Position numbers and translations under genes: made by a program
The notes under the pieces: model-generated
The model's database searches: none
What the model was told of the DNA's origin: nothing
Seen by the model: the letters and a program-made list of their open reading frames with translations, nothing else
Part shown: piece after piece, positions 2,181-19,140 of the stretch
How positions within the stretch are numbered: position 1 is the first letter of the stretch
How the letters are laid out: each line of letters begins with the position of its first letter
Assembly (NCBI GenBank): GCA_963846905.1
Contig: CAWJYB010000056.1
Location: 1 to 32,000, forward strand
Length of the DNA: 32,000 bases
Source: an uncultured Actinomycetota bacterium
GTDB lineage: Bacteria; Actinomycetota; Actinomycetes; Mycobacteriales; Mycobacteriaceae
Reading direction: 5' to 3'

Positions 2181-2574
2181 TAGGTGAACTGACCTGGGCT
2201 CGACAGAGAGCGGCGCCGGACTGCGAACCGTGGAGTCGCACGGGTGTCAAGGGCATCGGCGAGGACTGATCGCCTTCCCGGCTCGCTCTTGCTGATGTGG
2301 CGCAGCGCCAGTCAGCGCGCGCCGGCAAGCCACTACGATGCCCGCAGCTAGCCGACCACCTTGGGCTACCATCACTCCCCCTCGTCCAGTACAGCTGCCA
2401 CGTGTCCGGAGCCGCCAATTAGATTGAGACATAACAGCCCTCACCGTCTCCAAACAACTGGCGGTTACCAGCAACCGCCCGCCAACCACATTGAGACCGG
2501 ACACTCGCCGCGCAACGTGATGGACATGACGCGGTCGTGTATACCGTCGTCCCGCCGGCACCACGCCGAAGATG

Positions 2575-3317
2575 ATGATGCTGCCGATCCGCGACAGCCA
2601 CGACCCGTCGCCGCAGTGGCCGATCACGGGGAGTCTGCGGTTGGACTTGGCGCGGAACAGCAGATCGGCGCCCGTGGCCGCGACCTGGCCGATCAGGTCC
2701 GCGGCGGCGAAGTTGCGGTCGGCGAGCAGCAGCATGCCTTGGTGGAGGCAGCCCAGAAGCTTTGGTGCATAGTTGGTTTCGCCCACGCGTAGGGTGCCGA
2801 AGACGGCGTCGAGTACGGTGCGGGTGCCGCATGCGACCACGGTCAGCATCCGCAGCATCGGATACCCCGACGGGCTGTTGCCGCCGCCGGCCCGGCCGAA
2901 CGCGGCCAGGTTCGCCGGGGTGTCGGGGGTGAACATCGACGTGCCGTCGATCGCGCATACCAGCAGGCCACGCCATCGCGCCGCACCGGCGGCGGGGCCG
3001 CGGACCAGGTCGAACAGCTCCCGCAGCGGTTTGACACCGATACGGCGACGGGCTTGGGCCAACGCCGAGGACACCGGATCGGCGACATCGATGCCATCCA
3101 GGCCCGCGGTCATCCGAGCCCACACCTGGCCGTAGCCGAGCTCAGCGAACAGCGCCGCCGCCAGCAGCAGGTACACCACCACCCGCGACGGCAACGCCCG
3201 GACCCTGGCCTGCACCGTCCGGGTCGATTCCAGCACCGCATCGACCATCTCGAACGGGACGATCTGGGTCAACTCGCCGAGGTGACCGGGCGCGAACCGA
3301 CCCGCAGCAACCACCAC
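2575..3317 (-). pseudogene. IS4-family transposase, C-terminally truncated (about 245 of an expected ~450 aa)
   Basis: The N-terminus is IVPFEMVDAVLESTRTVQARVRALPSRVVVYLLLAAALF (IS4 N-terminal domain type), followed by LLVCAIDGTSMF..LLLADRNFAA (first DDE aspartates). Protein-like sequence ends after ..GSWLSRIG near 2583. The element's outer end lies somewhere between 3317 and ~3485. Confidence 0.65.
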
Positions 3318-4575: not shown

Positions 4576-6037
4576 GGGAGAGATGGTCGAGCGGCCCGCA
4601 CCGTACGCCGCATCGCTGGCGGATCGTGTCGAGAGTCTTGCGGTTGGTTTGACGTTCGCGACGGTGGTTGACTTGGAATCTCGCGAAGGCAGCCAGCCGC
4701 CGCGGTAGCGGATACCAGAGCAGCAGGTCAGAGCCGAAACCGGTGAATACTTTGGTGGGGAGGTGGTCAAATGCGAGGCTCAGGTTGTACGCAGTCAGAG
4801 GGAATACCGCTGGTATAGGCGATTTCCCTAATTTGTCCCGCAGGTCTTCCAGATCGAGTTCATACAACGGGAGGGTACTGAGCCCGCCGGTGAACATCAG
4901 GTGGGTGAGGAAATAGCCCGCCTGGAGAGTGATCGGGATGACCGCCGATCTGTGTTGTATCGACAGCGTCTGGCCCGACGGCGAGACGAATGGCTCGTAC
5001 GGATGCGAGCCACGCAGCTGTAGACCGGTGCAGTTGACGATCCACGTGCCCTCGGCGACGCGCGTGGTCTGCCCGCTCCGGTACACGAGTTCGGCGTGAC
5101 CATCGCGATCGACCACATCAGCGAGGTATTCGTTGTCGGCTCGCCGCAGGCCGGTGTCGATGACGGCCATCTCGACATCGGACGTACAGCCGCCGATGCC
5201 ATGGGCGAACTCGCATCGCTCACCCGTTGGACCTGTCCCCACGGCTGAGTAGAGCCAGCGCCGGACCTCGTCTTCGTTGGTCCCGTCGTAGCGCTTCGCG
5301 AACTCGGTGCTGAGGGTGGTGAACGGCAGGCCGCCGAACCAGCGACTCGCTCCCGTACTGAACAGGACATCGCGGCGCAGCGCCATTGACCCGCTGCCGA
5401 CCAACATGTTGACCTCACGGCCCGGGCATTGCGTGATGAGCGTGTGGGCGGTGTCAAGACCGGTCTTGCCACCGCCGATGATCCACACCGGGGTGTTGGA
5501 GTCAACGATCCGGTGCATGTCGTTCGGGGTCGCCGACTGCACGCGTGTACTGGAGACCGCCAGCGGCGGATTCGGCTTCATCTCAGATCCGAACGCCTTG
5601 ATGAGCCGCCTGGCGGTAATCACCCGGGTCTGCCCGTCAGGAGCCCGCAACGTCACCGAGACCAGGCCACCGGACTCCTCGTGCGACACATAGTCCCAGC
5701 CCAAACGCTCATCGATGTCCACCCGGCGCGAGAGGACGTTCAAACAGTGCCGCAGATGGTCGAGAATCTCCGGCTTCGTCGCCAGGTAGCAGCGGTCCTT
5801 GCCGAGCGTCCACTTGATATTCCCGGCGGTGAACAATTGATACGGCTGGTGCAATCGGACGTAGTCGTAGGTGTCGGTCCACATCCCACCGACGCGCGTA
5901 CGGCGGTCGACGAGCACCACCCGGTCGTTGCGGCCAAGGTACTGACTTGCTGCGGAAAGGGCGTTCAGGCCGGCGATTCCCGCGCCGACAACGCAGATTT
6001 CGCACTGATCGATTTGTAGCGTGTCCATGGCTGCCAC
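4550..6037 (-). CDS. FAD/NAD(P)-binding oxidoreductase (flavin-monooxygenase-like), paralogue B
   Basis: This is a 495-aa intact ORF with the same two dinucleotide-binding motifs as paralogue A. The last 8 codons (RQMRRSML) lie beyond the A/B homology boundary at 4576, in antisense tniQ DNA. Confidence 0.75.
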   Translation of the reverse strand: MAAMDTLQIDQCEICVVGAGIAGLNALSAASQYLGRNDRVVLVDRRTRVGGMWTDTYDYVRLHQPYQLFTAGNIKWTLGKDRCYLATKPEILDHLRHCLNVLSRRVDIDERLGWDYVSHEESGGLVSVTLRAPDGQTRVITARRLIKAFGSEMKPNPPLAVSSTRVQSATPNDMHRIVDSNTPVWIIGGGKTGLDTAHTLITQCPGREVNMLVGSGSMALRRDVLFSTGASRWFGGLPFTTLSTEFAKRYDGTNEDEVRRWLYSAVGTGPTGERCEFAHGIGGCTSDVEMAVIDTGLRRADNEYLADVVDRDGHAELVYRSGQTTRVAEGTWIVNCTGLQLRGSHPYEPFVSPSGQTLSIQHRSAVIPITLQAGYFLTHLMFTGGLSTLPLYELDLEDLRDKLGKSPIPAVFPLTAYNLSLAFDHLPTKVFTGFGSDLLLWYPLPRRLAAFARFQVNHRRERQTNRKTLDTIRQRCGVRCGPLDHLSRQMRRSML

Positions 6038-6318
6038 CCTTCCCCGCCCCTGTCCTACTAGCGGTCCAGTGTCTCGCAGACCGATCCGGCCGATCAGAGC
6101 AATCGGCTACTCGTTTCCTGGAAGTATGCTGGCAACTTTGTTGGCTCTCGGTGATCATCAACCGGGCTACTACTCCCGTTGTCCAGTAGTCGACCACCTG
6201 TCCGGAACCGCCAAGCAAACTGAGACATAACAGCCACTGATAATCTCAAAATAACTGGCGGTCGCCAGCGGCTGGCCTTCCCCCGAAACCGTGGAGGCAT
6301 CAGCTATAAGGAGTAGCG

Positions 6319-6609
6319 ATGTCAGAGAAACGGAAGAAGTACGACCGGGAGTTCCGTGAGGGGGCTGTTCGGATTGTGCGTGAGACGGGTAAGTCGATCG
6401 CGCAGGTGGCTCGGGATCTGGGGATCCATGAGGGCACTCTGGGCAATTGGGTTGCCCAGGACCGCGAGGCTCGGGAGGGTCGTGGGGAGTTGACCCGCGA
6501 CGATCTCGAGGAGCTCAAACGCCTGCGCAGCGAGAACGCCGAGTTGCGGATGGAGCGCGATGTCCTCAAGCGATCAGTGGTCCTGTGGGTGAAGGAGGCG
6601 ACGAAGTGA
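6319..6609 (+). CDS. IS3-family transposase OrfA (HTH)
   Basis: The 96-aa product is MSEKRKKYDREFREGAVRIV..SIAQVARDLGIHEGTLGNWV followed by a leucine-zipper-like LEELKRLRSENAELRMERDVLK. An SD-like aaggag lies upstream. Confidence 0.9.
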   Translation: MSEKRKKYDREFREGAVRIVRETGKSIAQVARDLGIHEGTLGNWVAQDREAREGRGELTRDDLEELKRLRSENAELRMERDVLKRSVVLWVKEATK

Positions 6610-7541
6610 GCGTGGCACGTTTCATCGCCGACCAGAGGACCAAATATCTAGTGCCACATGTGATTACGTGCGTGTTGTTGGGTGTCAGCGTGTCGTGGTT
6701 CTACAAGTGGATCGCCCGTGCTGAGTCGACCGATGGGTTGCATACCGACACCGATCGGCGCCGCGCGCGCCTCGATACCGCAGTCGCCGCGGCGTTCGCG
6801 GCGGCCAAGGGATTGCATGGTTCGCCGCGGCTGATCGCTGACCTGCGCGATCTGGGTTGGGAAGTGTCGGAGAAGACGGTGGCCGACTCGATGCGCCGCC
6901 AGGGTTTGGTGGCGCGCCGCATAAAGCGCCGCAATGGGCTCACCAAGCAGGACAAGACGGCACCGAAGTTTCCTGACCTGGTCAAACGGGACTTCACCGC
7001 GGCGGCGCCGAACCGCAAATGGGTCGGCGACATGACCGAGATCCCCACTGAGTCCGGGCAGAAACTGTATCTGGCGACGGTGATTGACCTCTATAGCCGC
7101 CGACTGCTGGGGGCGGCCATGGGCCTGCACCCGGATGCCGACTTGGCGTGTGCGGCGATCAAAATGGCCGTGGCCGCGCGCGGCGGCCGTCAAGCGATCT
7201 GGCGGGCTGAGGAGTCCGACCGGGTCATATTCCATACCGACCGCGGTAGCACCTATACCGCACACGCGTTCACCAAGCTGTGCCGGCAGTTGGGGATTCG
7301 GCAGTCGATGGGCCGGGTCGGATCGTGTTTCGACAACGCCGCCGCGGAGGCGTTCTTCTCCTCGTTGGAATGGGAGGTGCTGTCCCGCAATCGTTTCCGT
7401 GATACGATCCATGCGCAGGCTGTGGTTATCGACTGGTGCTACACGTTCTACAATCACCAACGCCGGCACAGTGCCGCCGACGGGCTATCGCCCGTCAACT
7501 ACGAGATCAGGGAATCCAAGACCAAGCCGGAAGCGGCATAG
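6606..7541 (+). CDS. IS3-family transposase OrfB (DDE/rve integrase core)
   Basis: GTG at 6606 overlaps the orfA stop (GTGA). The product contains WVGDMTEI, FHTDRGSTYTA and NAAAEAFFSSLEWE (DDE triad context). I saw no canonical A6G slippery heptamer in the orfA/orfB overlap. Confidence 0.85.
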   Translation: MSVARFIADQRTKYLVPHVITCVLLGVSVSWFYKWIARAESTDGLHTDTDRRRARLDTAVAAAFAAAKGLHGSPRLIADLRDLGWEVSEKTVADSMRRQGLVARRIKRRNGLTKQDKTAPKFPDLVKRDFTAAAPNRKWVGDMTEIPTESGQKLYLATVIDLYSRRLLGAAMGLHPDADLACAAIKMAVAARGGRQAIWRAEESDRVIFHTDRGSTYTAHAFTKLCRQLGIRQSMGRVGSCFDNAAAEAFFSSLEWEVLSRNRFRDTIHAQAVVIDWCYTFYNHQRRHSAADGLSPVNYEIRESKTKPEAA

Positions 7542-7748
7542 GAAACCCTCCACGATTTCGGGGGAACCACACGGTCGCCAGCGGCCGCCCGTCAGTTTGG
7601 ATTGAGACCGGACAACTCGATCAGCGACTGACGCTATGTTGGCTGACGCACAAGGGGCGCAAGCCTGTCGAGCGCGCGGCCGTCAAGTGCGTCAGCGAGG
7701 CCGGTCGAGTTGACCCGACTTGCCGACAAACTACCGCTCCGCCTTGCT

Positions 7749-7788
7749 GGTTACCAGTAGAGCACTGCGTATTGCACTGCGACCCAAC
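7749..7788. repeat. Composite repeat, copy 6: right half only
   Basis: Reads GGTTACCAGTAGAGCACTGCGTATTGCACTGCGACCCAAC. It matches the core and right arm of copies 1 and 4. The sequence immediately to its left (ccgctccgccttgct) has no similarity to the GAATCGAATA arm. It ends 46 bp from the vapC stop. Confidence 0.7.
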
Positions 7789-7834
7789 ATGTTCCGCCTG
7801 TTGTCGTCCTGCTTGCGCGAAACCGCCTCGAGAT

Positions 7835-8233
7835 TCAAACGCGCAGGACAGTCAATCCAGCGACTCCATTGAGGGGATGGAAATCTTCGTCTTGCGTGAC
7901 CACTGGTAGTCCGCGGGAAGCGGCAATGGCCGCGATCCAAAGATCGTTGATACGCACTCGCTGACCCGTCTCCGCCAAGTGCATGCGAAGACGCGCCCAC
8001 ATGCGTGCTGCGTCGTCGTCGACCGGAAATACAAGTAGGTCGGCAATTGCGTCGAGCGTTGCCAGTCGTTGCGCGCGAACATCTGCCGACGCAGCTGCAA
8101 GGACACCAAGGTTGAGTTCAGCCACGGTGACCACGGTCGTCGCAACCTCGTCCGGCACTCCGGATGCGTCGAGTCGGCGGCCACTCTCCTGTGCGATGAA
8201 CACGGACGTATCGAGAACGCCGATGGAGGTCAC
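7835..8233 (-). CDS. vapC: VapC toxin (PIN-domain ribonuclease), module 1
   Basis: The 132-aa product starts GVLDTSVFIA (first PIN acidic residue) and includes ..TVAEL.. and ..NDLWIAAIA..VVTQDEDF. Its GTG start overlaps the upstream antitoxin stop. Confidence 0.85.
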   Translation of the reverse strand: MTSIGVLDTSVFIAQESGRRLDASGVPDEVATTVVTVAELNLGVLAAASADVRAQRLATLDAIADLLVFPVDDDAARMWARLRMHLAETGQRVRINDLWIAAIAASRGLPVVTQDEDFHPLNGVAGLTVLRV

Positions 8234-8490
8234 GAAAGCAGCCCGGGGTCATCGGTGGTGTCGCCGGCCAGTTCGGCGAGTTCCGCACGCAACGCAGGGT
8301 CCGCCTGCGCACGCTCAAGCCTTCGTAGCAATTCCTCCCGACTCAGCAATCTGCGCCGGGTTGGCTGCAGGGCCGTCAGGCGTGCGACCGCCTTACCGCT
8401 GACGGTGACGATGATTTCTTCGCCCGCCTGGACGCGCCGTAGCAGTCCTGCGGTGTCGTTGCGCAGTTCTCGGGAAGCGACTTCAGACAT
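8230..8490 (-). CDS. vapB: VapB antitoxin (Phd/YefM type), module 1
   Basis: The 86-aa product is MSEVASRELRNDTAGLLRRVQAGEEIIVTVSGKAVARL, a typical Phd/YefM N-terminus. It lies directly upstream of, and is translationally coupled to, the PIN gene. Confidence 0.8.
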   Translation of the reverse strand: MSEVASRELRNDTAGLLRRVQAGEEIIVTVSGKAVARLTALQPTRRRLLSREELLRRLERAQADPALRAELAELAGDTTDDPGLLS

Positions 8491-8504
8491 GCTACGAATG
8501 TAGC
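8491..8504. promoter_or_regulatory. Palindrome abutting the vapB1 start (putative operator)
   Basis: GCTAC-gaat-GTAGC lies directly next to the ATG, and the nested TACGA...TCGTA extends to 8513. Confidence 0.3.
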
Positions 8505-8541
8505 ATAATCGTAGAATACCGTCTTCTGGGGTAGAACCGAA

Positions 8542-8608
8542 GAAGATACAGGAATCGAATATGGAGGGTTACCAGCAGACTACGCCGTTTTCGTCGGATG
8601 AATCACGG
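8542..8608. repeat. Composite repeat, copy 2 (degenerate, full length)
   Basis: Reads gaagatacaGGAATCGAATATGGAGGGTTACCAGCAGAC, then tacgccgttttcgtcggATGAATCACgg. The second part parallels the tail of copy 3 (gtgcgccacatccaccaggTGAATCACca). It sits ~50 bp upstream of vapB1. Confidence 0.65.
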
Positions 8609-8726
8609 ACGTTCGGATTCCTACATGAGTGATTCCCGGTGATGTTACTGGTGTGGCTCCTGTGATTGGGGCGAGGGTGGCCATGATCGGCGTTGGAATA
8701 CCGACGCTGAACCGAAAGGGCCCTTC

Positions 8727-8820
8727 GTGGACACCGACCTGGACACCCTCGCCACTGCACTGTATGTGACCTGCGACGACTTGCTCGACACCTATCCCGG
8801 ACGCGCGCCGTATCGGCCGG
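8727..8820 (+). pseudogene. IS982/IS5-like transposase, N-terminal ~30 codons only
   Basis: VDTDLDTLATALYVTCDDLLDTYPGRAPYRP resembles the conserved N-terminus (DLDTLxTALYVxxDD) of IS982-family transposases. Similarity ends near 8820, inside the 3' end of vapC2 on the opposite strand. Confidence 0.45.
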
Positions 8821-9205
8821 TGTCAACGAAGTCACTGCGGTTGCGCGTCGCGAGTCCGGCGTTCCAGTTGCGGCAAATTGCGGCGATCTGCCCATCGGCC
8901 ATACTGATCTGGAGTCCGCTACGCTCCCGGTCCGCAACGATATCTGCATAGCGGGTTGCAGCCAGCGCATCGAATGGCAAAATCCTGTCCCGGAAATCCT
9001 CCGCCAGCAGTCCGTCGATCTGTGCGCGAAGCTCACGTCTGCGTCGCCCGTTCGGCAATTGGGCGACGCCGTACATCAGTTCGGCCGCCGTCACTGCGGT
9101 CAGCAATATGTCGGACACATCCAAACTGTCGACCCAACGAGTGACGCCAGGTTCCGGCGCTGGGCGCATCAGCTCCGAAACGACGTTGGTGTCCAAGATG
9201 ATCAT
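8792..9205 (-). CDS. vapC: VapC toxin (PIN domain, FitB-like), module 2; last ~7 codons are foreign
   Basis: The 137-aa product starts MIILDTNVVSEL and includes ..TAAELMYG.. and ..DGQIAAIC..GLATRNRSDFVDTG. The tail RYGARPG* is encoded by the antisense of the IS982-like fragment. Confidence 0.8.
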   Translation of the reverse strand: MIILDTNVVSELMRPAPEPGVTRWVDSLDVSDILLTAVTAAELMYGVAQLPNGRRRRELRAQIDGLLAEDFRDRILPFDALAATRYADIVADRERSGLQISMADGQIAAICRNWNAGLATRNRSDFVDTGRYGARPG

Positions 9206-9446
9206 CCGTCAAGGACCGCAGCACGTGGACGCTCGGTCCGGCTGGGCAGGTCAAGCTCCACCCCCCCGCTCCCCGAGAAGCGCTGCCGAATCCGCGTCGC
9301 CATCCCAGGACCACCCCAGGGCGTTCCAATGCCGTGCCCAAGATCTCCCGCACTTCCGATTCCATCGACCGGCTGTGCTCTGCTGCGCGAACACGCAGTG
9401 CCGCTTTGAGCTCGTCGTCAAAATCGCGAATCGTCAAGGTCGCCAT
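9202..9446 (-). pseudogene. vapB: VapB antitoxin (RHH, FitA/Arc-like), module 2, frameshifted in a C7/G7 run
   Basis: It starts MATLTIRDFDDELKAALRVRAAEHSRSMESEVREIL (RHH). After the homopolymer at 9261-9267, the expected end GVELDLPSRTERPRAAVLDG* lies in the other frame and stops at 9202-9204, overlapping the vapC ATG (ATGA). As given, the ORF reads through to 9033. Confidence 0.65.
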
Positions 9447-9464
9447 CAGTCACCCCTCGCCCAT

Positions 9465-9490
9465 TGCTTGCATTGCAGTCAATGCAAGCA
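9465..9490. promoter_or_regulatory. 11-bp perfect inverted repeat upstream of vapB2 (putative operator)
   Basis: TGCTTGCATTG-cagt-CAATGCAAGCA lies 19 bp upstream of the vapB2 ATG (9446). Confidence 0.4.
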
Positions 9491-9639
9491 GCCTGTCTGG
9501 CGCTTGGCGTGATTTTCTATCCACAAACTCTGCGCACGGTTGATGGGTCAGGACCGAGGATTGAAACGACGACCCCCGGCTGGCGGATGACGACTCCCCT
9601 GCGTACCAACTGGCCAACCCGCTGGCGGTACCTTCAATG

Positions 9640-9720
9640 GAGGAATACGGCGGAATCGAATACGGCGGGTTGCCAGTAGAGTGCGCCACATCCACCAGGT
9701 GAATCACCATCCGTGTCCGG
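9640..9720. repeat. Composite repeat, copy 3 (full length)
   Basis: Reads gAGGAATACGGCGGAATCGAATACGGCGGGTTGCCAGTAGAGtgcgccacatccaccaggtgaatcacc. Its left arm is identical to copy 1. Confidence 0.8.
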
Positions 9721-9846
9721 TCATCAGCAAATTGCGGACTATGCCCCTCGCTACCTACACTTGACACCCTACCGAGGTTGATCGCGACAAGGATCCGGGC
9801 TCTCCCTGGCTCGACCGGACCGCACAACCCCGGGCGCCTAGGCCCG

Positions 9847-9874
9847 GGAGTAACGGTGGAATCGAATATTGTGG
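9847..9874. repeat. Composite repeat, copy 5: left half only
   Basis: GGAGTAACGGTGGAATCGAATATTGTGG matches the left arm (compare GGAGTACGGCCGAATCGAATATGGCGG in copy 4). Similarity stops where the GTTACCAG core should begin. It is preceded by the hairpin CCCGGGC-gcctag-GCCCGGG (9823-9842). Confidence 0.6.
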
Positions 9875-9879
9875 CCACA

Positions 9880-10118
9880 GACACGCGCCGTGCATCCACG
9901 ACGATTCATCCGCCAGAACGTCGAGCTGGTGCTGGTGGTGCCGTTCTGCCCGCAATGCCACCAGGCCACCGCCGTACTGGCGCGTGCGCTGGAAGCCGGC
10001 GGGCTGCCTACCCTGATGCTGTCCACCCTGCGCGACATCTCCGAGGCCTACCAGCCCCCCCACCGCCCTGGTCGGCTACCCCATCGGCGCACCATGCGGC
10101 CGCGTCGGCGACCCCGTG
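9880..10118 (+). pseudogene. Gene fragment, possibly glycine/betaine-reductase-B-like family; 5'-truncated, frameshifted and split by the intron
   Basis: VELVLVVPFCPQCHQATAVLARALEAGGLPTLMLSTLRDISEAYQPP is followed, after the C7 run at 10055-10061 and in another frame, by RTALVGYPIGAPCGRVGDPV. This pattern recalls GrdB-like proteins (..E.aGIPTv.is....i.....PPRal.v.fPlG.P.G.p.d). The family assignment is from memory only. Confidence 0.3.
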
Positions 10119-10182
10119 GTGAAAGTCGGCCCGGAGCGCGGTGACAGCCTTGCGGCTGTTCCGTTTCTCCGGGCCGCTTCCC

Positions 10183-10216
10183 GAATCCGGCATGCATCTT
10201 TCAATGCACCGGGCTC
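10183..10216 (-). ncRNA. Group II intron domain V
   Basis: The minus strand reads GAGCCCGGUGCAUU-GAAA-GAUGCAUGCCGGAUUC. It is 34 nt long, with the AGC triad, a GAAA tetraloop, a 2-nt bulge (UG) on the 3' strand and one C/A mismatch. The RT stop codon (10201-10203) lies inside it. Confidence 0.8.
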
Positions 10217-10986
10217 TCCACAAGACCCGTCGTGGTGTCGTGGTGCTCCTCGTCGCCGATGAGCGGCCAGGGTGTCGGGATGACCGAGCCGCGGTAGCGG
10301 TATCGGGTCGTGCCGATCTTGGACAGATCGATCAGTGTCATCTCGTGCCCGGCTGGCCACCATCGTCCGCCGCAGTACTGCCGGCGGAGGTGTTTCCAGG
10401 TCGATTTCGGGTGTTTACGGCGTATCCATCGCCAAACCGTATGCCACACATAGTGGTTGAGGTAGGAGAAGACAGCCGAGGACACCCCGGCCCGGAAATG
10501 CCCAGCCCAGCCCCGCAGCGTCGCGTTCAAGCGGCGCAGCAGTTCATCGAGCGGCTGGGTGGTCGAGACCTGTCGTGAAATCGTCTTGACCTTCCGCGTG
10601 GCGGCCTGAACGGCTTTCTTCGACGGATAGGTGTAGACGTAGTAGCGGCTGGTTCCCCGCTTGCGGTGACGCTGGATGTGCCACCCGAGGAAGTCCAGGC
10701 CCTCGTCGATATGGGTGATCAGGGTCTTGTCCGGCGACAGACGCAATCCCATCCCCGCCAACACGGTGGTGATCTGCTCCCGTAGCGCCTCGGCATCGGC
10801 TTTGGTGCCCTTGACCATCAGACACCAGTCGTCGGCATAACGGACCAACCTAAAATTCGGCAGTCCGTGGCGAAGCCGTTTAGCCCGCTCCACCTTGCCG
10901 GTGCTCGGCCCACCAGGAGCCTGGGCGATGTACTCGTCCAGCACCGACAACGCGACATTAGCCAACAATGGCGACAAGATTCCACC
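10201..10986 (-). pseudogene. Group II intron reverse transcriptase/maturase, C-terminal part
   Basis: GG-ILSPLLANVALSVLD...RYADDWCLMV (RT5 YADD)...FLGWHI...LNATLRGWAGHF (X/maturase region). No HNH endonuclease domain is evident. The frame continues from the fragment at 15762-16478 once the RIT is removed (..GTPQGG|ILSPLL..). Confidence 0.85.
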
Positions 10987-11069
10987 TTATGAACAGTGCC
11001 GGGTTATGCGCAGCGCCGGCCGGCTTGGCCTGGTGACGGCGATTTTGGGGGTCGATCACTGCGCATAAC
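10987..11069. repeat. RIT left terminal inverted repeat
   Basis: TTATGAACAGTGCCGGGTTATGCGCAGCGCCGGCCGGCTTGGCCTGGTGACGGCGATTTTGGGGGTCGATCACTGCGCATAAC matches the reverse complement of 15654-15735, with about 5 differences. Internally it carries GTTATGCGCAG and CTGCGCATAAC as a nested inverted pair. Confidence 0.9.
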
Positions 11070-11131
11070 GCGGATCCTCTGATCGGGAGGCCCGGTATGG
11101 TGCCGGGCCGCATGGTCGGAGGTCAGTTGTT

Positions 11132-12361
11132 ATGGCGACTTTGTCTGCGTTGGTGTCGGGCCTGGAGGCGGAGTTACAGCGTTTGGGCTACAAGGATTCG
11201 ACGCTGGTTTGGTACCGGGGTTGTTGGCGGCGGATGCAGAAGTACTTCGCTGCGCGTGGTGTCGAGGAGTTCTCCCTGGATGCGGCGATGGCGTGGGTCG
11301 ACGACGCGTGTGGGTTTTTCGGCAAGGAGCAGGCCGGCACCCTGAAGCGCACCGATGTGTATTTGTTCAGGGTCGCTCAGATGCTGGGGGATTACGCGGT
11401 CCACGGGGCGGTGCTGCGCCGCTATAACCGGTCGGTGAGCAAGCTGGACGGGGCCGGTGCCGAGACGGTCGCCCGGTTCCAGGCGCACCTGCGCTCGGCT
11501 GGGCGCTCGGCCTCGACCGTGCGGACCTACGGGACGCTGGCCGGGGAGTTCGTCGCGTTCACCGGCACCCGCGGAGGGCTGGGCTGCTGCGACGCCGCCA
11601 TGATCGGGGCGTTTGTTGCCACGCTGACCGGATACCAGTTCAAGACTGTCGAGCAGAAACTGTGTGCGGTGCGGTCGTTCCTGCGGTTCGCCTGCGCCGC
11701 CGGCCTGGTCGACGGGGCGTGTCTGGAGGCGGTGCCCGCGGCGCGCTCGGCCAGGCAGGCCAGGATTCCGTCGGTGTGGGATCCGGGCGAGGTGGCCAGG
11801 ATCGTGGAAGCGATCGACCGCGGCAACCCGTGCGGGAAACGGGATTACGCGATCATCCTGCTGATCACCAGGCTCGGGCTGCGCGGCGTGGACATCAAGC
11901 GGCTGGAGTTCGCCGACTTCGACTGGCCGGGCAACCGGCTATTCGTGACGCAGGCCAAGACCGGTCACCGGGTGCAGTTGCCGCTGCTGAAAGATGTTGG
12001 CTGGGCGGTGATCGACTACATCCGCCACGCCCGGCCGGACTGCGACTGCCGGCAGGTGTTCGTGCGGCACACGGCCCCGATCGGCCCGTTCTCCGACCAG
12101 GATCATCTGCATCAGGTTCTGGTCAAACATGCCCGCGCAGCACACGTTGCGGTGAGCGAGAAACGCCGCCATGGCATGCACTCGCTGCGGCATTCGCTGG
12201 CGACCCGGCTGATGGAAAGCGGCACACCGGTCGAGCAGATCGCCGACATCCTCGGTCACCAGTCCGTCGAGTCGACCGGTGTCTACCTGAAATCCTCGTT
12301 GGGCCTGCTGGCCAAGTGCGCGCTGGACCCGGACGCACCGGCGAACGGGGCGTCGCGATGA
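11132..12361 (+). CDS. ritA: Tyrosine recombinase RitA-like (409 aa)
   Basis: It has GLRGVDIKRLEF (Arg I), HSLRHSLATRL (HxxR) and LGHQSVESTGVYLK (His/Tyr). It is the first and longest of the trio, with a GGAGG SD-like sequence 9 nt upstream. Confidence 0.85.
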   Translation: MATLSALVSGLEAELQRLGYKDSTLVWYRGCWRRMQKYFAARGVEEFSLDAAMAWVDDACGFFGKEQAGTLKRTDVYLFRVAQMLGDYAVHGAVLRRYNRSVSKLDGAGAETVARFQAHLRSAGRSASTVRTYGTLAGEFVAFTGTRGGLGCCDAAMIGAFVATLTGYQFKTVEQKLCAVRSFLRFACAAGLVDGACLEAVPAARSARQARIPSVWDPGEVARIVEAIDRGNPCGKRDYAIILLITRLGLRGVDIKRLEFADFDWPGNRLFVTQAKTGHRVQLPLLKDVGWAVIDYIRHARPDCDCRQVFVRHTAPIGPFSDQDHLHQVLVKHARAAHVAVSEKRRHGMHSLRHSLATRLMESGTPVEQIADILGHQSVESTGVYLKSSLGLLAKCALDPDAPANGASR

Positions 12362-13338
12362 GCCCCGCCCTCACGATGACCGAGGCGATCACCGCCCTGG
12401 TCACCGAAAAACGTGCCACGGGTTACAAATACCACGCCGAGCAGCGGGTGCTGACCCGGTTCGCCGCGTTCTGCGCCAGGGAGTTCCCCGGGCAGCAGGC
12501 GCCCACCCGGGCCTCAGTCGAGGCCTGGATCGCGGCCGCCCGCCGGCGCGGAGTCACCCCGGCGACCCTGCACAGCTTGGCCGCGCCGGTGCGGGAGCTG
12601 GCCCGCTGGCTGGGCCGCCGGGGCGTGCCGGCCTACGTCCTGCCCGCCAGGGCACTGCCCCGCCCCGCCCGCTACGTCCCGCACATCTACACCGACCAGG
12701 AACTGGCGGCCCTGTTCACCCAAACCGACCGCTGCCACTACGACTCGCAGGTCCCGTTCCGGCACCTGGTCATGCCGGTGCTGTTCCGCACGATCTACGC
12801 CTGCGGCCTGCGTGCCTCCGAAGCCCGGCTGCTGCGCTTCGACGACGTCGACCTCGACGCCGGGGTCCTGACAATCCGCGACGGCAAGGGCGGCAAAGAC
12901 CGGCAGGTCCCGGTCAGCGCCGGGCTGCGCGACAGACTGGCCGGCTACCACGCCCGCGTCGCCGGGCGCACCGGCGGGGACTGGTTCTTCCCCGGCACCG
13001 CCGGGCGCCCGCTGACGATCGGCAACATCGACAAGAACTTCCGCCGGTTTCTGTGGCAGGCCCGCATCCCCCACGGCGGCAGGGGCCATGGCCCCCGCGT
13101 GCATGATCTGCGACACGCCATGGCAGTCAACAATCTTCGGTCGTGGTTCGCCGGCGGCGAGGACGTCGCCGCGTTGCTGCCGGTCCTGCAGACCTACCTG
13201 GGCCACGCCTCCCTCTCCGACACCGACTACTACCTGAGGCTGACCGCCGAGTCCTACCCGCACATCACCACCTGCATCCAGCGTGCCCACGGCGACGTCG
13301 TCCCACCCGTCACGGAAGGCCCCTGTGATGGCAACTGA
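12358..13338 (+). CDS. ritB: Tyrosine recombinase RitB-like (326 aa)
   Basis: ATG at 12358 overlaps the ritA stop (ATGA). It has CGLRASEARLLRF, HDLRHAMAVN and LGHASLSDTDYYLR. The 232 codons upstream in the same ORF overlap ritA out of frame and are not counted. Confidence 0.85.
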   Translation: MSPALTMTEAITALVTEKRATGYKYHAEQRVLTRFAAFCAREFPGQQAPTRASVEAWIAAARRRGVTPATLHSLAAPVRELARWLGRRGVPAYVLPARALPRPARYVPHIYTDQELAALFTQTDRCHYDSQVPFRHLVMPVLFRTIYACGLRASEARLLRFDDVDLDAGVLTIRDGKGGKDRQVPVSAGLRDRLAGYHARVAGRTGGDWFFPGTAGRPLTIGNIDKNFRRFLWQARIPHGGRGHGPRVHDLRHAMAVNNLRSWFAGGEDVAALLPVLQTYLGHASLSDTDYYLRLTAESYPHITTCIQRAHGDVVPPVTEGPCDGN

Positions 13339-13757
13339 TTTCGCGGTGTTGCTGGCCCGCTTCCTCACCTCGCACCTGGCCGGGCTGCGCGGCTGCTCAC
13401 CCCACACGATCGCCTCCTACCGCGACACCTTCAAGCTGCTGATCGCCTGGTTCCGCGACTGCAGATCCATCCCGCCCGACAAACTCACCCTCGATCGCAT
13501 CGACGCCGACGCGATCACCGCGTTCCTGGACTGGCTGGAAGCCGAACGGCACAACAGCATCTCGACCCGCAACCAGCGCCTGGCTGCGGTCAGCTCGTTC
13601 TTCCGGTGGCTGCAATCCCAGGACCCGACCAGGATGGCCGGCTGCCAGGACATCCTCGCCGTCCCCGCCAAACGCAGGGCCCAGCCGAGCGTCAATCACC
13701 TCACCATCGAGCAGACTCGCCGTCTGCTCGCCCAGCCCGACCGGTCCACCCGGTCAG
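13328..13757 (+). pseudogene. ritC: Tyrosine recombinase RitC-like, N-terminal part (interrupted by IS3 copy 2)
   Basis: MATDFAVLLARFLTSHLAGLRGCSPHTIASYRDTFKLL..ITAFLDWLE..RNSISTRNQRLAAVSSFFRW is a SAM-like N-terminal domain. It is broken after ..AQPDRSTR at the IS end. Confidence 0.8.
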
Positions 13758-13787
13758 TGTGGTTCCCCCGAAATCGTGGAGGGTTTC

Positions 13788-14723
13788 CTATGCCGCTTCC
13801 GGCTTGGTCTTGGATTCCCTGATCTCGTAGTTGACGGGCGATAGCCCGTCGGCGGCACTGTGCCGGCGTTGGTGATTGTAGAACGTGTAGCACCAGTCGA
13901 TAACCACAGCCTGCGCATGGATCGTATCACGGAAACGATTGCGGGACAGCACCTCCCATTCCAACGAGGAGAAGAACGCCTCCGCGGCGGCGTTGTCGAA
14001 ACACGATCCGACCCGGCCCATCGACTGCCGAATCCCCAACTGCCGGCACAGCTTGGTGAACGCGTGTGCGGTATAGGTGCTACCGCGGTCGGTATGGAAT
14101 ATGACCCGGTCGGACTCCTCAGCCCGCCAGATCGCTTGACGGCCGCCGCGCGCGGCCACGGCCATTTTGATCGCCGCACACGCCAAGTCGGCATCCGGGT
14201 GCAGGCCCATGGCCGCCCCCAGCAGTCGGCGGCTATAGAGGTCAATCACCGTCGCCAGATACAGTTTCTGCCCGGACTCAGTGGGGATCTCGGTCATGTC
14301 GCCGACCCATTTGCGGTTCGGCGCCGCCGCGGTGAAGTCCCGTTTGACCAGGTCAGGAAACTTCGGTGCCGTCTTGTCCTGCTTGGTGAGCCCATTGCGG
14401 CGCTTGATGCGGCGCGCCACCAAACCCTGGCGGCGCATCGAGTCGGCCACCGTCTTCTCCGACACTTCCCAACCCAGATCGCGCAGGTCAGCGATCAGCC
14501 GCGGCGAACCATGCAATCCCTTGGCCGCCGCGAACGCCGCGGCGACTGCGGTATCGAGGCGCGCGCGGCGCCGATCGGTGTCGGTATGCAACCCATCGGT
14601 CGACTCAGCACGGGCGATCCACTTGTAGAACCACGACACGCTGACACCCAACAACACGCACGTAATCACATGTGGCACTAGATATTTGGTCCTCTGGTCG
14701 GCGATGAAACGTGCCACGCTCAC
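13788..14723 (-). CDS. IS3-family transposase OrfB (copy 2)
   Basis: The protein is the same as 6606-7541, and the mirror coordinates within the IS agree. Confidence 0.85.
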   Translation of the reverse strand: MSVARFIADQRTKYLVPHVITCVLLGVSVSWFYKWIARAESTDGLHTDTDRRRARLDTAVAAAFAAAKGLHGSPRLIADLRDLGWEVSEKTVADSMRRQGLVARRIKRRNGLTKQDKTAPKFPDLVKRDFTAAAPNRKWVGDMTEIPTESGQKLYLATVIDLYSRRLLGAAMGLHPDADLACAAIKMAVAARGGRQAIWRAEESDRVIFHTDRGSTYTAHAFTKLCRQLGIRQSMGRVGSCFDNAAAEAFFSSLEWEVLSRNRFRDTIHAQAVVIDWCYTFYNHQRRHSAADGLSPVNYEIRESKTKPEAA

Positions 14724-15010
14724 TTCGTCGCCTCCTTCACCCACAGGACCACTGATCGCTTGAGGACATCGCGCTCCATCCGCAACTCGGCGTTCTCGCT
14801 GCGCAGGCGTTTGAGCTCCTCGAGATCGTCGCGGGTCAACTCCCCACGACCCTCCCGAGCCTCGCGGTCCTGGGCAACCCAATTGCCCAGAGTGCCCTCA
14901 TGGACCCCCAGATCCCGAGCCACCTGCGCGATCGACTTACCCGTCTCACGCACAATCCGAACAGCCCCCTCACGGAACTCCCGGTCGTACTTCTTCCGTT
15001 TCTCTGACAT
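14720..15010 (-). CDS. IS3-family transposase OrfA (copy 2)
   Basis: The 96-aa product is identical to copy 1 except for one residue (DLGVHEG versus DLGIHEG). Confidence 0.9.
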   Translation of the reverse strand: MSEKRKKYDREFREGAVRIVRETGKSIAQVARDLGVHEGTLGNWVAQDREAREGRGELTRDDLEELKRLRSENAELRMERDVLKRSVVLWVKEATK

Positions 15011-15056
15011 CGCTACTCCTTATAGCTGATGCCTCCACGGTTTCGGGGGAAGGCCA

Positions 15057-15634
15057 CAGGCCGCCGTGACGCGACCCTGCTGGCCACCCTCTACGACACC
15101 GCCGCCAGGGTCCAAGAACTCGCCGACCTGACCGTACGCGACATCCGCCCCCAGCCCCCTGCCCTGGCCGTGCTGACCGGCAAGGGCCGCAAAACCCGCC
15201 ACGTCCCGCTCGGCGACAACACCGCAGCACTGCTCAACGCCTACCTGACCGAACACGGCCTCGACAAACCCGGCCACGACGACCACCCACTGTTCACCAA
15301 CCAGCATCGCAACAAACTCAGCCGCGGCGGCATCGCCTGGATCATCGGCAAATACCAAGCCCAGGAAGCCGATCCGACGCTCACCAACGCTCGCCTCAGC
15401 CCACACATTCTGCGGCACAGTCGGGCCATGCACCTCTACGAAGCAGGCGTGCCGCTGCCCTACATCCGCGACATCCTCGGACACGTCGACCTGACCACCA
15501 CCGAGATCTACGCACGCGCCTCCACCGAGGCCAAACGCAAAGCCCTCGAAGCCACCTACACCGAAATCGTCACCGACGAGCTACCCGAATGGAACCACGA
15601 CAGCGGGCTGCTCACCTGGCTCGCCAGCCTGTGA
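15057..15634 (+). pseudogene. ritC: Tyrosine recombinase RitC-like, C-terminal catalytic part
   Basis: ..GRRDATLLATLYDTAARVQELADLTVRDI (Arg I), HILRHSRAMHL (HxxR), LGHVDLTTTEIYAR (His/Tyr). Confidence 0.8.
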
Positions 15635-15653
15635 GCTCAGCACGCACCACGAG

Positions 15654-15735
15654 GTTATGCGCAGTGATCGACCCCAAAATCGCTGTCACCAGGCCTTGCC
15701 GGCCGGCGCTGCGCATAACCCGGCGCTGTTCATAA
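15654..15735. repeat. RIT right terminal inverted repeat
   Basis: It is the reverse complement of the left TIR. It is followed by 26 extra bp (15736-15761), ggcggcTTATGTTCAGCTGAACATAA, which contain a perfect 20-bp palindrome related to the TTATGAACAG terminus. Confidence 0.85.
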
Positions 15736-15761
15736 GGCGGCTTATGTTCAGCTGAACATAA

Positions 15762-16478
15762 TCCACCCTGCGGGGTGCCGGCGGTGGTGTCCTCCAAGTG
15801 GCGTTCCTCGGTGAGGATGCCCGCCTTGAGGAACTCCTTCACCAGAGCCAGAACGCGTTTGTCTCCGACTCGTCGCCGCACCCGGTCCATGAGTGCCGGA
15901 TGCGAGATTTCGTCGAAACAGGCTTTGATGTCGCCCTCCACGATCCACTCGTAGCAACGAGGGCGGGTCGTGAAGAAGCGAACCTCGGCCACCGCGTCAT
16001 GAGTCCGGCGTTTCGGGCGGAAACCGTAGGAACACGGCAGAAAATCCGCCTCGAAAATCGGCTCCAACACCAGCTTCAACGATGCCTGGACCACCCGATC
16101 CGCCACGGTGGGAATCCCTAGACGACGCAGCCGTCCATTCGCCTTCGGGATCATCCGCTCACGCACCGGCAACGGGCGGAAACTACGGTCCTTCAAACTG
16201 TTCCGCAGCTCGTCGAGGAACTCCTCGACACCCTGCAACGCCGCAATCGAACGAGCGGTGCGCCCGTCCACTCCGGCCGTTGCGGCACCCTTGTTTCCGC
16301 TCACCCGATCCCACGCGACCAACAAGAACGCGGGGTCGGCAACGAGGTTGAACAGGTCGTCGAACCTGCGATGAGGATCATCGCGAGCCCAACGGTGCAG
16401 CTTGGTCTGGATCTTCAGTACCCGTTGTCGCGCCAGCATCAGCGCCAGCTCGAGTTCGTCGGTATTCACCGGCGACAT
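15762..16478 (-). pseudogene. Group II intron reverse transcriptase, N-terminal part
   Basis: MSPVNTDELE..WDRVSGNKGAATAGVDG (RT0/1), RMIPKANGRLRRLGIPTVADRVVQ (RT2), YGFRPKRRTHDA (RT3), DIKACFDEI (RT4), ..GTPQGG. The likely ATG is at 16478; the longer listed ORF begins inside the intron RNA leader. Confidence 0.85.
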
Positions 16479-17131
16479 CACACTCCTCCTGACCTTCCAG
16501 AACTTCCACTGCTGTCTTGCTGGCCCCCTTCGCCCTGCGGCCGCCTCTCGCGACCTCCACGGCGGGTCGTTACGCCCGCGACTACTACGGGACCTCCGCC
16601 CCACCACAGCACTCCTCGGCCGGACACGGGCCTTCCACCCGAACCGGACCGGCTGCCCGGACCGAGTGGGCGGAGCGCAGGATGGTTCCCACGTTCACCG
16701 AACGATCGATCGGTCAGGGAGGCACCCAGCTCTACCCCGGCAGCATCGCCACGCCTACGCCGCAGTCCTTCGACGCGGCCTCCCCACCGCCGATCAAAAA
16801 CGGCTTCGGAGTCACCCGCCACCACAGGTCCCCATGAGGGCTTTATGGTGGCGGCTGTGCGCTGCATCCCGGCCCATATCCGCCAGATTCGAGCCGGCAG
16901 AGAGGTTACGGGGCGTCGACCACTGGTTCGCTCACGCTGTACCTTCTGACCTTGCTCGGCCAGCCCGCGCCGTCTGGCAGTGCCGGCACGTCTGGCCTTT
17001 GTCGGGGCCGCTTGCCACCCTCACCGGCGTTCCCCGGATCGGGCTGCCCCCAGCTTCACCCGGACCGCTGCGACGGCCCGAGGGAGACGGTCTCTCACCA
17101 CCTCTCGATCTATCAGCGCCTCGTGGCGCAC

Positions 17132-17197
17132 TTGACCGTCTCTCGGGATGACGACCACGGGTGTTGTGCCGTCGTTGATCTTGCCGATGGCTACTAG
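17132..17197 (+). pseudogene. 3' remainder of the intron-split gene fragment
   Basis: With the intron removed, 10116-10118 (GTG) joins 17132 (TTG) in frame, giving ..GRVGDPV|LTVSRDDDHGCCAVVDLADGY*. Whether this is the native C-terminus cannot be verified. Confidence 0.25.
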
Positions 17198-17392
17198 CCA
17201 TCAACGGAGACGTGGTGGATCCGGACGTGACAACCGAGACCGGATCGCTGGGCGAGATCGTCATCCCCACAGCGTCAAACTAGGCGGCCACGGACCCGCT
17301 CGGTCAGCGTGAATCCTGAGTGCCTGGCCACCGATTCCTCTCGGCGGCCCCGGGCACTCAGCACGTCGCTCGACATCCCCCGAGCAGTCGAG

Positions 17393-17460
17393 GCCTATAG
17401 TCGAGCCGGTAGGAACGTGACTCCGCCCTGGCTGTGCGCCAGTCTCAGCACTACCTATCG
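17393..17460. repeat. Conserved ~65-nt block 'X' (paralogue of 18283-18358)
   Basis: CCTATAGTCGAGCCGGTAGGAACGTGACTCCGCCCTGGCTGTGCGCCAGTCTCAGCAC aligns with CCTAATAGCCGAGCCGGAGGGAACGTGCCTGGCCCCTGGGGTTGGTGCGTCGGTGTCAGCAC, about 75% identical by eye. Confidence 0.55.
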
Positions 17461-17504
17461 TTTTCATCCGACAACGACGGTGATGCCACTCCGAGAGTTG
17501 GGCA

Positions 17505-17855
17505 TCAGAGATCTAGGACGAAACGCAGCGCTTGGTCAATGGCTTGCATCTGTCCTGGACTAATCATTCCTTGGCGAGATGACAGACGTTCGACGGACAC
17601 CACTCGCAGTTGGTCGCAGCGAGCGTAGGAAATATGGTCCAGCCCGCTGCTCGCTGGCTCAAGTTCGACGTGGCTTCGCAGGCCGTAACCAGCGGTCGTG
17701 ATCGGGACAATGACCACTAGACCGCCCGGTCCGTTGTTGAGAATGTCGACCGACACCACCACCGCCGGGCGGTAAAAGGCCGGTTCGTGTCCGACTGGCT
17801 GTCCGAGGTCGACGTGGTGCACTTCCCCTCGCCAGATCAAGCCAGTGAGTCCCAC
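17505..17855 (-). CDS. mazF: MazF/PemK-family toxin (endoribonuclease), module 3
   Basis: IWRGEVHHVDLGQPVGHEPAFYRPAVVVSVD...VIVPITT... is the typical MazF N-terminus and core. The start is either the GTG at 17855 or the TTG at 17840, which overlaps the antitoxin stop (TTGA). Confidence 0.8.
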   Translation of the reverse strand: MGLTGLIWRGEVHHVDLGQPVGHEPAFYRPAVVVSVDILNNGPGGLVVIVPITTAGYGLRSHVELEPASSGLDHISYARCDQLRVVSVERLSSRQGMISPGQMQAIDQALRFVLDL

Positions 17856-18070
17856 TCGTGACGCTCGGCCAGGTATTGCTCCCAGAGTTCGGGGTCGTTG
17901 CGCAGGCGTTGGTAATCCCCGTTGAGCCCTCGCAAGAATTCCTGCCTTTCCAAGGCGTCGATGGCTGCGTGCACGACGTCGACAACGGCGGTTTGACGAG
18001 CCTTGGCTAGAGATTGCAGCCGCTCAGAATCGGGACGGCGGACTCGGACGGTTGTGGTTTCTGCTGCCAT
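17837..18070 (-). CDS. mazE: MazE-like antitoxin (RHH type), module 3
   Basis: The 77-aa product is TTVRVRRPDSERLQSLAKARQTAVVDVVHAAIDAL plus an acidic/aromatic C-terminus (DYQRLRNDPELWEQYLAERHEWD). It lies immediately upstream of, and overlaps, the MazF gene. Confidence 0.7.
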   Translation of the reverse strand: MAAETTTVRVRRPDSERLQSLAKARQTAVVDVVHAAIDALERQEFLRGLNGDYQRLRNDPELWEQYLAERHEWDSLA

Positions 18071-18078
18071 GGAATCAG

Positions 18079-18096
18079 TGTAGACGAATTGTAGAC
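18079..18096. promoter_or_regulatory. Direct repeats TGTAGAC-N4-TGTAGAC upstream of mazE3 (putative operator)
   Basis: Two identical 7-mers sit 11 bp apart (one helical turn), 9 bp upstream of the mazE3 ATG. Confidence 0.35.
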
Positions 18097-18282
18097 ACAG
18101 GACATGTTGGCGGATCGTCCCATGTGTTCAGCAAACGAACGCTGGGCAATTTCGAGTACCACCGGACCTCGCCCTCCCGCTTGAGCAGGACGACTCCCAG
18201 GTTCTACATCCAGGCGTCGATGGCGATTCCGCTGGCCTGCCTGGCGCCTCGCCGCGCTGATGGCCGCGCACTGCGTCTCAGT

Positions 18283-18358
18283 CCTAATAGCCGAGCCGGA
18301 GGGAACGTGCCTGGCCCCTGGGGTTGGTGCGTCGGTGTCAGCACCTCTAGCAAACGAT
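18283..18358. repeat. Conserved block 'Y' (paralogue of 17393-17460)
   Basis: See the alignment under 17393-17460. It lies between the mazE3 promoter region and repeat copy 4. Confidence 0.55.
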
Positions 18359-18467
18359 CGCAATGCAGGCCAGCCGATCCGCGCGGGCCAAAGTGGGTCA
18401 GGTACTGCCGCCGGGCCGTCGGGCGTCGCCTCGTCTCATCAGCCGAAGTCACCGATGGCGAGTCGAA

Positions 18468-18532
18468 GGAGTACGGCCGAATCGAATATGGCGGGTTACC
18501 AGTAAACGTCGCCTTTGCACTGCGGCCCCAAC
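18468..18532. repeat. Composite repeat, copy 4 (full length)
   Basis: Reads GGAGTACGGCCGAATCGAATATGGCGGGTTACCAGTAAACgtcgcctTTGCACTGCGGCCCCAAC. It ends 8 nt from the mazF4 stop codon (18541-18543). Confidence 0.8.
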
Positions 18533-18540
18533 GAGTTTCA

Positions 18541-18885: not shown

Positions 18886-19076
18886 CGTGTCGAGACTGCC
18901 TCGAAGAAGTCCTGGTCGTCGTTGTTTTCGTCTGCTCGCGCGACCAGCGAGGACTGCTTGTGCGCCTCGACCGCGAAAGTCTCAGTCCGTACGTCAGGCA
19001 CCCAGACCTGCAGTGGCCGGAGGCCGCGCTCACGCATCCGTCGTCGGTACTCGCCGACTCTTTCCCTCACCGCCAT
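18870..19076 (-). CDS. mazE: MazE-family antitoxin (DUF3018-like), module 4
   Basis: The 68-aa product [55 protein letters not shown] matches the pattern I associate with DUF3018 antitoxins paired with PemK toxins. Confidence 0.7.
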
Positions 19077-19084
19077 GGTGCGAT

Positions 19085-19096: not shown

Positions 19097-19140
19097 GCTG
19101 ATTTGGGCCGATGGGCTGAGTTTGGGGCCGATGGATAGTC

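Follow-up and report, generated by a model that had tools for sequence, protein, structure and literature searches.

What is a short repeat that recurs on a single strand between toxin-antitoxin genes, and that twice survives only as one of its halves? The question arises in a 32,000-nt stretch from an uncultured Mycobacteriaceae bacterium (GenBank assembly GCA_963846905.1, contig CAWJYB010000056.1, positions 1 to 32,000 of the forward strand), here called the window, whose DNA is high in GC and mycobacterial in character. We conclude that the repeat is probably the joint between mobile gene cassettes, which stand in one-directional arrays on Mycobacteriaceae chromosomes and large plasmids and are served by a site-specific recombinase acting in trans. 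A cassette would run from just after the CCAGTN of one site to the CCAGTN of the next and would comprise, in order, a right arm, genes read from the other strand (for the most part MazEF or VapBC pairs), and a left arm with its core. The recombinase would insert, lose and reshuffle such cassettes, with the exchange point fixed at CCAGTN|, where the bar marks the joint.

The repeat occurs in the window far more often than chance allows. Its left-arm pattern GAATCGAATAYGG is found six times and its core GGGTTACCAGTA eight times, where about 0.8 would be expected; in 100 shuffles these counts were never reached. Every copy lies on the + strand. Four sites are full, and two copies, numbered 5 and 6, are halves:

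1-71, + strand: site c1, full, first of the window array, with a left arm of two GAATACGGCGG, core GGGTTACCAGTA, the junction between 42 and 43, and a right arm
7749-7802, + strand: copy 6, a right-only half site with core GGTTACCAGTA and a type-i right arm
8535-8621, + strand: site c2, full, with the variant core CCAGCA and a type-ii right arm
9636-9716, + strand: site c3, full, with core GGGTTGCCAGTA and a type-ii right arm
9847-9874, + strand: copy 5, a left-only half site, degenerate (GGAGTAACGGTGGAATCGAATATTGTGG), its core lost
18462-18547, + strand: site c4, full, with a type-i right arm

The same repeat is spread through the mycobacteria. A 24-nt pattern, run against a single genome of each species, identified 95 loci (labelled L with a number below), which belong to Mycobacterium, Mycolicibacterium and Mycolicibacter, with one from Gordonia, and a pattern for the left arm only recovered at least 120 metagenome contigs. 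The combined set holds at least 217 loci with at least 345 sites, and a family profile was built from 96 related copies. The left flank of c1, assigned to group E, is conserved in L044, L051 and L001. Four Mycobacterium plasmids and one Rhodococcus plasmid also carry the repeat. It was present in none of the records of the phage collection searched, and a near-identity plasmid search with window positions 7580-10118 gave no match. Full-text literature, queried by sequence motif and by concept, yielded no description of the repeat or of mycobacterial cassette arrays. A known structured RNA was set aside as its identity: a tRNA scan of the window was run, and Rfam returned only a group II intron match. 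Matches about 100 nt from contig ends raised the possibility of an insertion-sequence (IS) end, which we rejected because those short contigs hold ordinary genes.

The anatomy of the site is that of a protein-binding site. Its left part consists of two direct 11-mers, GAATAYGGNGG, in a 15-nt register, followed by the core GGGTTACCAGTN. An inverted copy of the left 10-mer, CGCCGTATTC, begins 8 nt past CCAG in about 40% of copies; it is recognisable in 41 of the 96 copies, where 8 would be expected by chance, and lies at exactly that offset in 32 of the 41. The inverted 10-mers are 16 bp apart (41/96 copies), and the junction falls 3 nt to the right of the dyad centre. Single-strand folding was no better than for shuffles (z from -1.8 to +1.3), and a polymorphic position of the left 10-mer showed no covariation with its would-be partner in the other arm. 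The site is therefore predicted to be bound by protein as double-stranded DNA, unlike the attC of integrons. A repetitive extragenic palindrome (REP) or bacterial interspersed mosaic element (BIME) served by a REP-associated tyrosine transposase (RAYT) finds no counterpart here: the repeat forms no hairpin, and cassette and neighbourhood scans returned no HUH (RAYT) gene.

These family-wide features bear out part of what a first-pass annotation had read from the window. It had preferred a recombination site to a structural REP element, and the copies do bound mobile cassettes, share one orientation and lack a single-strand fold. It had also described the left arm as two copies in a 15-bp register; the family has direct 11-mers 15 nt apart. 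Its right arm of two CACTGCG units is peculiar to copy 6, the family right arm being the inverted left 10-mer at a fixed offset. Right arms fall into several types: one ends in ..CCCAACG..TTTCA, another has the palindrome TTCATCNGATGAATCA, and another has GTCCGGTCTCA at +48 to +53. This last motif stands at that distance from the core, on the same strand, in at least 13 sites (for example L029 743-754 and L145 1615-1626). Inverted GTCCGGTCTCA copies also adjoin an IS4 remnant in the window, at about 2490 and 7609.

Neighbouring sites always point the same way, and the DNA between them behaves as a transferable unit. All adjacent site pairs within a locus are co-oriented (86/86 and 49/49, or 135 of 135 among the matches listed), with a typical spacing of 0.65-1.9 kb and a smallest spacing of 109 bp. 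Eleven genomes share, at 94-97% identity, a 1.09-kb cassette for a CBM_2 protein, with sites on both sides and different DNA after it each time. One MazF cassette is followed by the CBM_2 cassette in two genomes and by other cassettes in two more. Mycobacterium peregrinum and M. septicum (L044 and L051) have left flanks 100% identical up to CCAGTA; beyond it they carry 4.2 kb (three cassettes) and 1.7 kb, respectively, before a common right flank resumes. L093 has the order cassette Z, site, yaeQ, and extra cassettes stand at that same joint in L049 (5.3 kb) and L028 (3.1 kb). Toxins lead the cassette content: among 117 cassette open reading frames (ORFs), MazF (12) and PIN (7) proteins are most frequent, and the rest are diverse enzymes and regulators. 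MazF genes are oriented against the sites by 20 to 1. No recombinases were present among the 117 ORFs other than IS3-type transposases.

One gene recurs at the right-hand side of arrays. yaeQ (PF07152) is found beyond the last detected site, on its right, in L043, L028, L009, L051, L081, L042, L077, L049 and L093, and is co-oriented with the sites in eight of the nine genome loci; in L009 it stands between two sites. Its start is 66-175 nt from the core in L077, L093 and L049. As a candidate for the enzyme itself yaeQ was rejected, since it is found at only 9 of 68 visible array ends.

Comparison of sites that share one flank places the exchange at a single position. For 66 site pairs with a common left flank and an unrelated right flank, homology stops directly after GGGTTACCAGTN in 41; in the remaining 25 it runs on for a few more bases to the right, in none does it stop earlier, and many right arms begin with A. 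An independent count of BLAST segment ends gave the same peak (107 of about 220). The base N of CCAGTN stays with the left flank, being C in eight of eight group-B contexts and G in group D. Because homologous exchange inside the conserved arm would unlink N from its left flank, this argues that the exchange events are site-specific.

Many arrays begin at dif, the chromosomal site of Xer recombination. The pattern CGATAA-N6-TTATGTCA is exact in 30 of 222 loci scanned, among the matches listed, where about 0.01 would be expected. The consensus at array starts, TGCCGATAAGCGACATTATGTCAAGT, matches the M. tuberculosis dif used in Xer-mediated marker excision (primers in PMC5364183) and the dif predicted for actinobacteria (PMC3025954). 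Of the genome loci, 22 have dif, and in every one it shares the orientation of the sites and stands 0.5-2.6 kb to the left of them; its XerD arm runs directly into a cassette right arm, and its XerC side has no sites. This arrangement, co-oriented, to the left of the sites and abutting the first cassette, indicates that many arrays are anchored at dif in the manner of Xer-exploiting elements.

A dedicated recombinase candidate recurs in or beside arrays. It is a module, here termed Int-HTH-Int, of an Xer-like tyrosine recombinase, a small helix-turn-helix (HTH) protein and a second, divergent tyrosine recombinase of 400-800 aa that has no Pfam match. Modules were located in L098 (2221-6190), L219 (17218-21073), L221 (6361-7834 and 8473-11248), L035 (within an insertion termed element X), L119 and L195. 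Two plasmids carry modules, and on one metagenome contig a core is followed, 262 nt to its right, by a module. Homologs of the second recombinase occur in at least 13 loci, always co-oriented with the sites, and many are named 'recombinase XerD' at NCBI. A 2,968-bp relative is inserted exactly at CCAGTG|AAC in two species, and element X is bounded by the joints CCAGTG|AGTTT and TTGGTT|AACTACC, one on each side. The motif ATGATTCAT, an 8-mer also present in the type-ii right arm, is repeated upstream of the first module gene. Since arrays commonly begin at the XerD-arm side of dif and recombinase modules recur beside sites, the enzyme is probably a tyrosine recombinase, whether the host XerC/XerD or an Int-HTH-Int module dedicated to the task.

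Several observations weigh against this reading of the repeat as a cassette joint served by such an enzyme. Across the 96 loci, most sites have no recurring recombinase within 8 kb. The window array, both ends of which are visible, contains no integrase by Pfam scans of the window ORFs, and its only tyrosine recombinases are a trio nested in a group II intron. The dif pattern is not present in the window, and no dif/site hybrids occurred in the sampled loci. The geometry is awkward as well: classical Xer recombination cuts at the borders of the 6-bp centre, and the exchange point seen here lies at the outer edge of the dif XerD arm, a misfit with that chemistry. Internal joints resemble dif weakly, and their junction falls outside the XerD arm. 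The start of the right arm diverges far more than the cassette body: MazF cassette T (L075/L080/L082) has 5 mismatches in the first 25 nt or so after CCAGTA against 99.7% identity over the next 340 nt, and in one cassette family the 7 nt past the junction are hypervariable. This divergence suggests local exchange or hypermutation at the joint, and could mark the place of the overlap region. Neither a circular cassette nor an empty/filled pair differing by exactly one cassette was captured, and the evidence is entirely comparative.

The window array itself is old in appearance, with cassettes interrupted by nested insertions. Its features, other than the sites, are:

2456-2475, + strand: site-like remnant TGGCGGTTACCAGCAAC in unit A, without a left arm
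6273-7572, + strand: IS3-family insertion sequence, with an identical inverted copy at 13757-15056
7573-7748, + strand: unit-B flank that abuts copy 6, without a left arm
7760-8577, - strand: cassette with a PIN toxin (7835-8233) and a Phd/YefM antitoxin (8230-8490)
8578-9678, - strand: cassette with a PIN toxin (8792-9205) and a FitA-like ribbon-helix-helix antitoxin (9202-9446)
9679-9874, + strand: short cassette without an ORF, whose L043 ortholog ends in a normal site
9875-10118, + strand: PrdB-like pseudogene fragment, frameshifted, ending at the group II intron
10119-17131, - strand: group II intron inserted in the array, with Rfam domain V/VI at 10119-10218 and the 5' GTGCG at 17131
10982-15740: recombinase-in-trio (RIT) element with three recombinases and 69-nt inverted repeats, splitting the reverse-transcriptase gene of the intron
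17132-18504, - strand: remainder of the cassette, with MazF (17505-17855) and a putative antitoxin (17837-18070)
18505-19100, - strand: last cassette, with MazF (18541-18885) and MazE (18870-19076), no left arm following

The insertions are nested three deep. The IS3 copy at 13757-15056 splits the third recombinase of the RIT element, which in turn splits the group II intron. At 10982-15740 three tandem tyrosine recombinases stand between long inverted repeats, as in the definition of RIT elements; the element is a passenger of the array and distinct from the repeat studied here, and a likeness of its inverted-repeat motif to the site arms was judged to be chance. The unit-B counterpart of the unit-A remnant, GGTCGCCAGCGGC, is duplicated on both sides of the other IS3 copy (6260-6272 and 7573-7585), a flanking 13-bp direct repeat that exceeds the usual IS3 target duplication. 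Further left, an imperfect tandem duplication (365-1933 and 4576-6148, 84% identity, 4.2-kb period) covers a gene for an FAD-dependent monooxygenase and its upstream region, and one duplicated unit holds what is left of an IS4-family transposase (2247-3317). Another short repeat (..GAGCCGG.AGGAACGTG.C..) occurs at 17400-17450 and 18290-18345, on the downstream side of one MazF operon and the upstream side of its neighbour. At the right array end, positions 19255-20563 (- strand) encode an AAA_21/AbiEii-like ATPase of 225 aa and then a 186-aa protein without a family match, which could be a small defence gene pair.

The two half-copies are real and break almost together. As the first-pass annotation had described, nothing but the left arm survives in copy 5 and nothing but the core and right arm in copy 6, and both breaks map to GG|GTTACC, 1-2 nt apart. 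Copy 6 aligns to the family profile only from position 36, at GGTTACCAG (E = 4.9e-5, 96 loci plus window), and the flank to its left is, as claimed, unit B continuing beyond the IS3 copy. The alignment of copy 5 stops after ..GAATCGAATAT. Two right-arm profiles and pairwise tests gave no right arm after it (all p > 0.1), and a right arm masked by a 4-nt deletion was not significant either. The orthologous short cassette of Mycolicibacterium vaccae (L043) ends with a normal GAATATGGCGGGTTACCAGTA, so copy 5 has lost its core. The 5'-truncated gene said to adjoin copy 5 corresponds to a fragment of a frameshifted PrdB-like pseudogene, cut by the group II intron, for which a 5' truncation could not be shown. 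It has a single homolog among 5.8 billion proteins, which likewise starts there; here and in L097 173-550 the similarity begins at one position, TGGTGCTGGTGGTGCC.

The coincidence of the two breaks, which the annotation had taken as the mark of a common crossover, says little about mechanism. Half-copies are recognisable only if they break in a short stretch around the core, within about 16 nt for a left-only copy and about 11 nt for a right-only copy, and these ranges overlap; we estimate that agreement within 3 nt would arise by chance with P of about 0.2-0.4. The recurrent junction, CCAGTN|, sits 10 nt further right, after GGGTTACCAGTN. A wider alignment, in which similarity ending at different positions was to point to random erosion, came close to that outcome: the breaks of half-copies elsewhere range over index 24-42. 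In the genome sample they lie at about index 28-42 for left-only copies, while right-only copies begin at about 24-39, with small clusters at 35, 38 and 41-42 and no single junction. Half-copies are uncommon, at about 5%. In the metagenome sample, which is unbiased, 81 of 103 distinct left arms among the matches listed have the core in full, the remainder being mostly point or indel variants; those truly without a core break at index 30, 33, 35 and 41. The outer flanks of copies 5 and 6 occur in no other genome searched, L001 being a near-identical strain. Copies 5 and 6 are best taken as sites that broke 10 nt left of where exchange normally occurs, and not as normal attL/attR products. Most likely they arose through two separate illegitimate or deletion events, in an old array rich in IS3, IS4, group II intron and RIT insertions.

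Three other explanations deserve weight beside cassette exchange at CCAGTN|, one of them for the half-copies alone. Copies 5 and 6 might be attL/attR-type junctions, left when the block 7749-9874, with its three cassettes, was excised as a circle and re-inserted into a non-canonical target through a crossover at GG|GTTACC. The block does have a right-only copy at its left and a left-only copy at its right, which on joining would rebuild one full site. Both breaks lie at index 34-36, as do those of two further left-only copies, in L002 (at 550) and L218. Moreover, reading the site as a pseudo-dif (AATCGAATA / YGGNGG / GTTACCAGTA) would make GG|GTTACC the XerD-side border of the 6-bp centre. We nevertheless consider this history unlikely: besides the displaced junction of the 66 informative pairs, the scatter of breaks elsewhere and the effect of ascertainment, the outer flanks could not be shown to be contiguous in any genome, and the search for dif/site hybrids that cross over within the putative centre found none. 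Relatives in which ...CCGCCTTGCT is joined to CCACAGACACG... would favour block insertion; complete sites at both places would imply two deletions. A broader and more tentative proposal, to which we lend somewhat less than even credence, takes the system as an undescribed analogue of integrons with a double-stranded site of about 45 bp, often dif-anchored, at which XerC/XerD act outside their classical cleavage points or an Int-HTH-Int enzyme acts, and GG|GTTACC serves as a second strand-exchange point.

The remaining two explanations both seem improbable to us. The repeat could be a passive regulatory element, or one akin to REPs or to miniature inverted-repeat transposable elements, whose arms of about 45 bp recombine homologously and then erode slowly. 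The conservation of left arm plus core would suffice for short-homology exchange, direct repeats could lose a cassette between them without a dedicated enzyme, most arrays adjoin no recombinase, and the half-copy breaks are scattered. Homologous exchange, however, fits poorly with the linkage of the base after CCAGT to its left flank in eight of eight group-B contexts, with the gain of unrelated cassettes at the same joint, and with cassettes whose flanks vary between genomes on both sides; nor does a passive repeat account for the strict orientation of the listed pairs, the missing hairpin or the anchoring at dif. Alternatively, and with as little likelihood, each cassette could be a non-autonomous transposon mobilised by a transposase encoded elsewhere, which would recognise left arm plus core as its conserved end and the right arm as its variable end, the cassette inserting target-specifically and one-sidedly at an existing end or at the dif XerD arm in a manner like IS200/IS605 or Tn7. 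Such transposition would suit element X of L035, which entered at one phosphodiester without a duplicated overlap, and left partners that have only ..AGTN in common (CCAGTA at the site, CAAGT at dif). Against it, no transposase family recurs, there are no subterminal hairpins, and the proteins that do recur nearby are tyrosine recombinases.

The nearest known systems are integrons, Xer-exploiting elements and dif modules, and staphylococcal SCC elements that accrete at orfX. Cassette exchange at CCAGTN| invites comparison with integrons. Like these, the mycobacterial arrays hold small, mostly single-operon cassettes between co-oriented sites with a polar gene orientation; the junction is fixed at one position of the site, the same cassette turns up in different arrays, and toxin-antitoxin cassettes are abundant, as in sedentary chromosomal integrons. 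attI1 has extra direct-repeat binding motifs beside its inverted pair, and so does the mycobacterial site. The differences are substantial. There is no adjacent IntI and no hairpin, the core is GTTACCA rather than the integron GTTRRRY, sequence rather than structure is conserved, and the site is conserved in the part upstream of the cassette genes. We know of no integron reported in Actinomycetota. The system lies outside the definition of an integron, having neither IntI nor a folded attC, and shares in part the defining features of Xer elements.

These include integrative mobile elements exploiting Xer (IMEX) and dif modules, such as Vibrio CTX/TLC at dif1, the gonococcal genetic island (GGI) and Acinetobacter pdif. 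They share a start at a canonical dif (30 loci here), one-sided growth, frequent toxin-antitoxin genes and a recombinase supplied in trans. The mycobacterial internal joints, however, are a distinct sequence of about 45 nt rather than 28-bp dif-like sites, exchange falls at the outer edge of the XerD arm and not in the 6-bp centre, and many arrays, including that of the window, do not adjoin dif. The mycobacterial joints are all direct, whereas successive pdif modules take alternating orientations. Staphylococcal cassette chromosome (SCC) elements at orfX likewise form tandem units at a conserved chromosomal anchor with direct repeats between them, and SCC units without their own recombinase are moved by Ccr encoded elsewhere; they differ in using serine recombinases and in their much larger units, and the mycobacterial anchors are several (dif, upstream of yaeQ, and flanks B and E). 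In architecture the site matches the internal resolution site of the Tn4430 TnpI recombinase, an inverted pair of binding motifs with direct-repeat copies on one side, although that site occurs once per transposon and is not a cassette joint.

Dif-anchored cassette arrays in mycobacteria, if true, would be a second, independent solution to the problem of cassette capture. They would make it testable whether Xer-type recombinases can build cassette arrays, and the site would offer a natural, sequence-defined docking point for genetic tools. They would also account in part for the spread of toxin-antitoxin and accessory genes among mycobacteria and mycobacterial plasmids.

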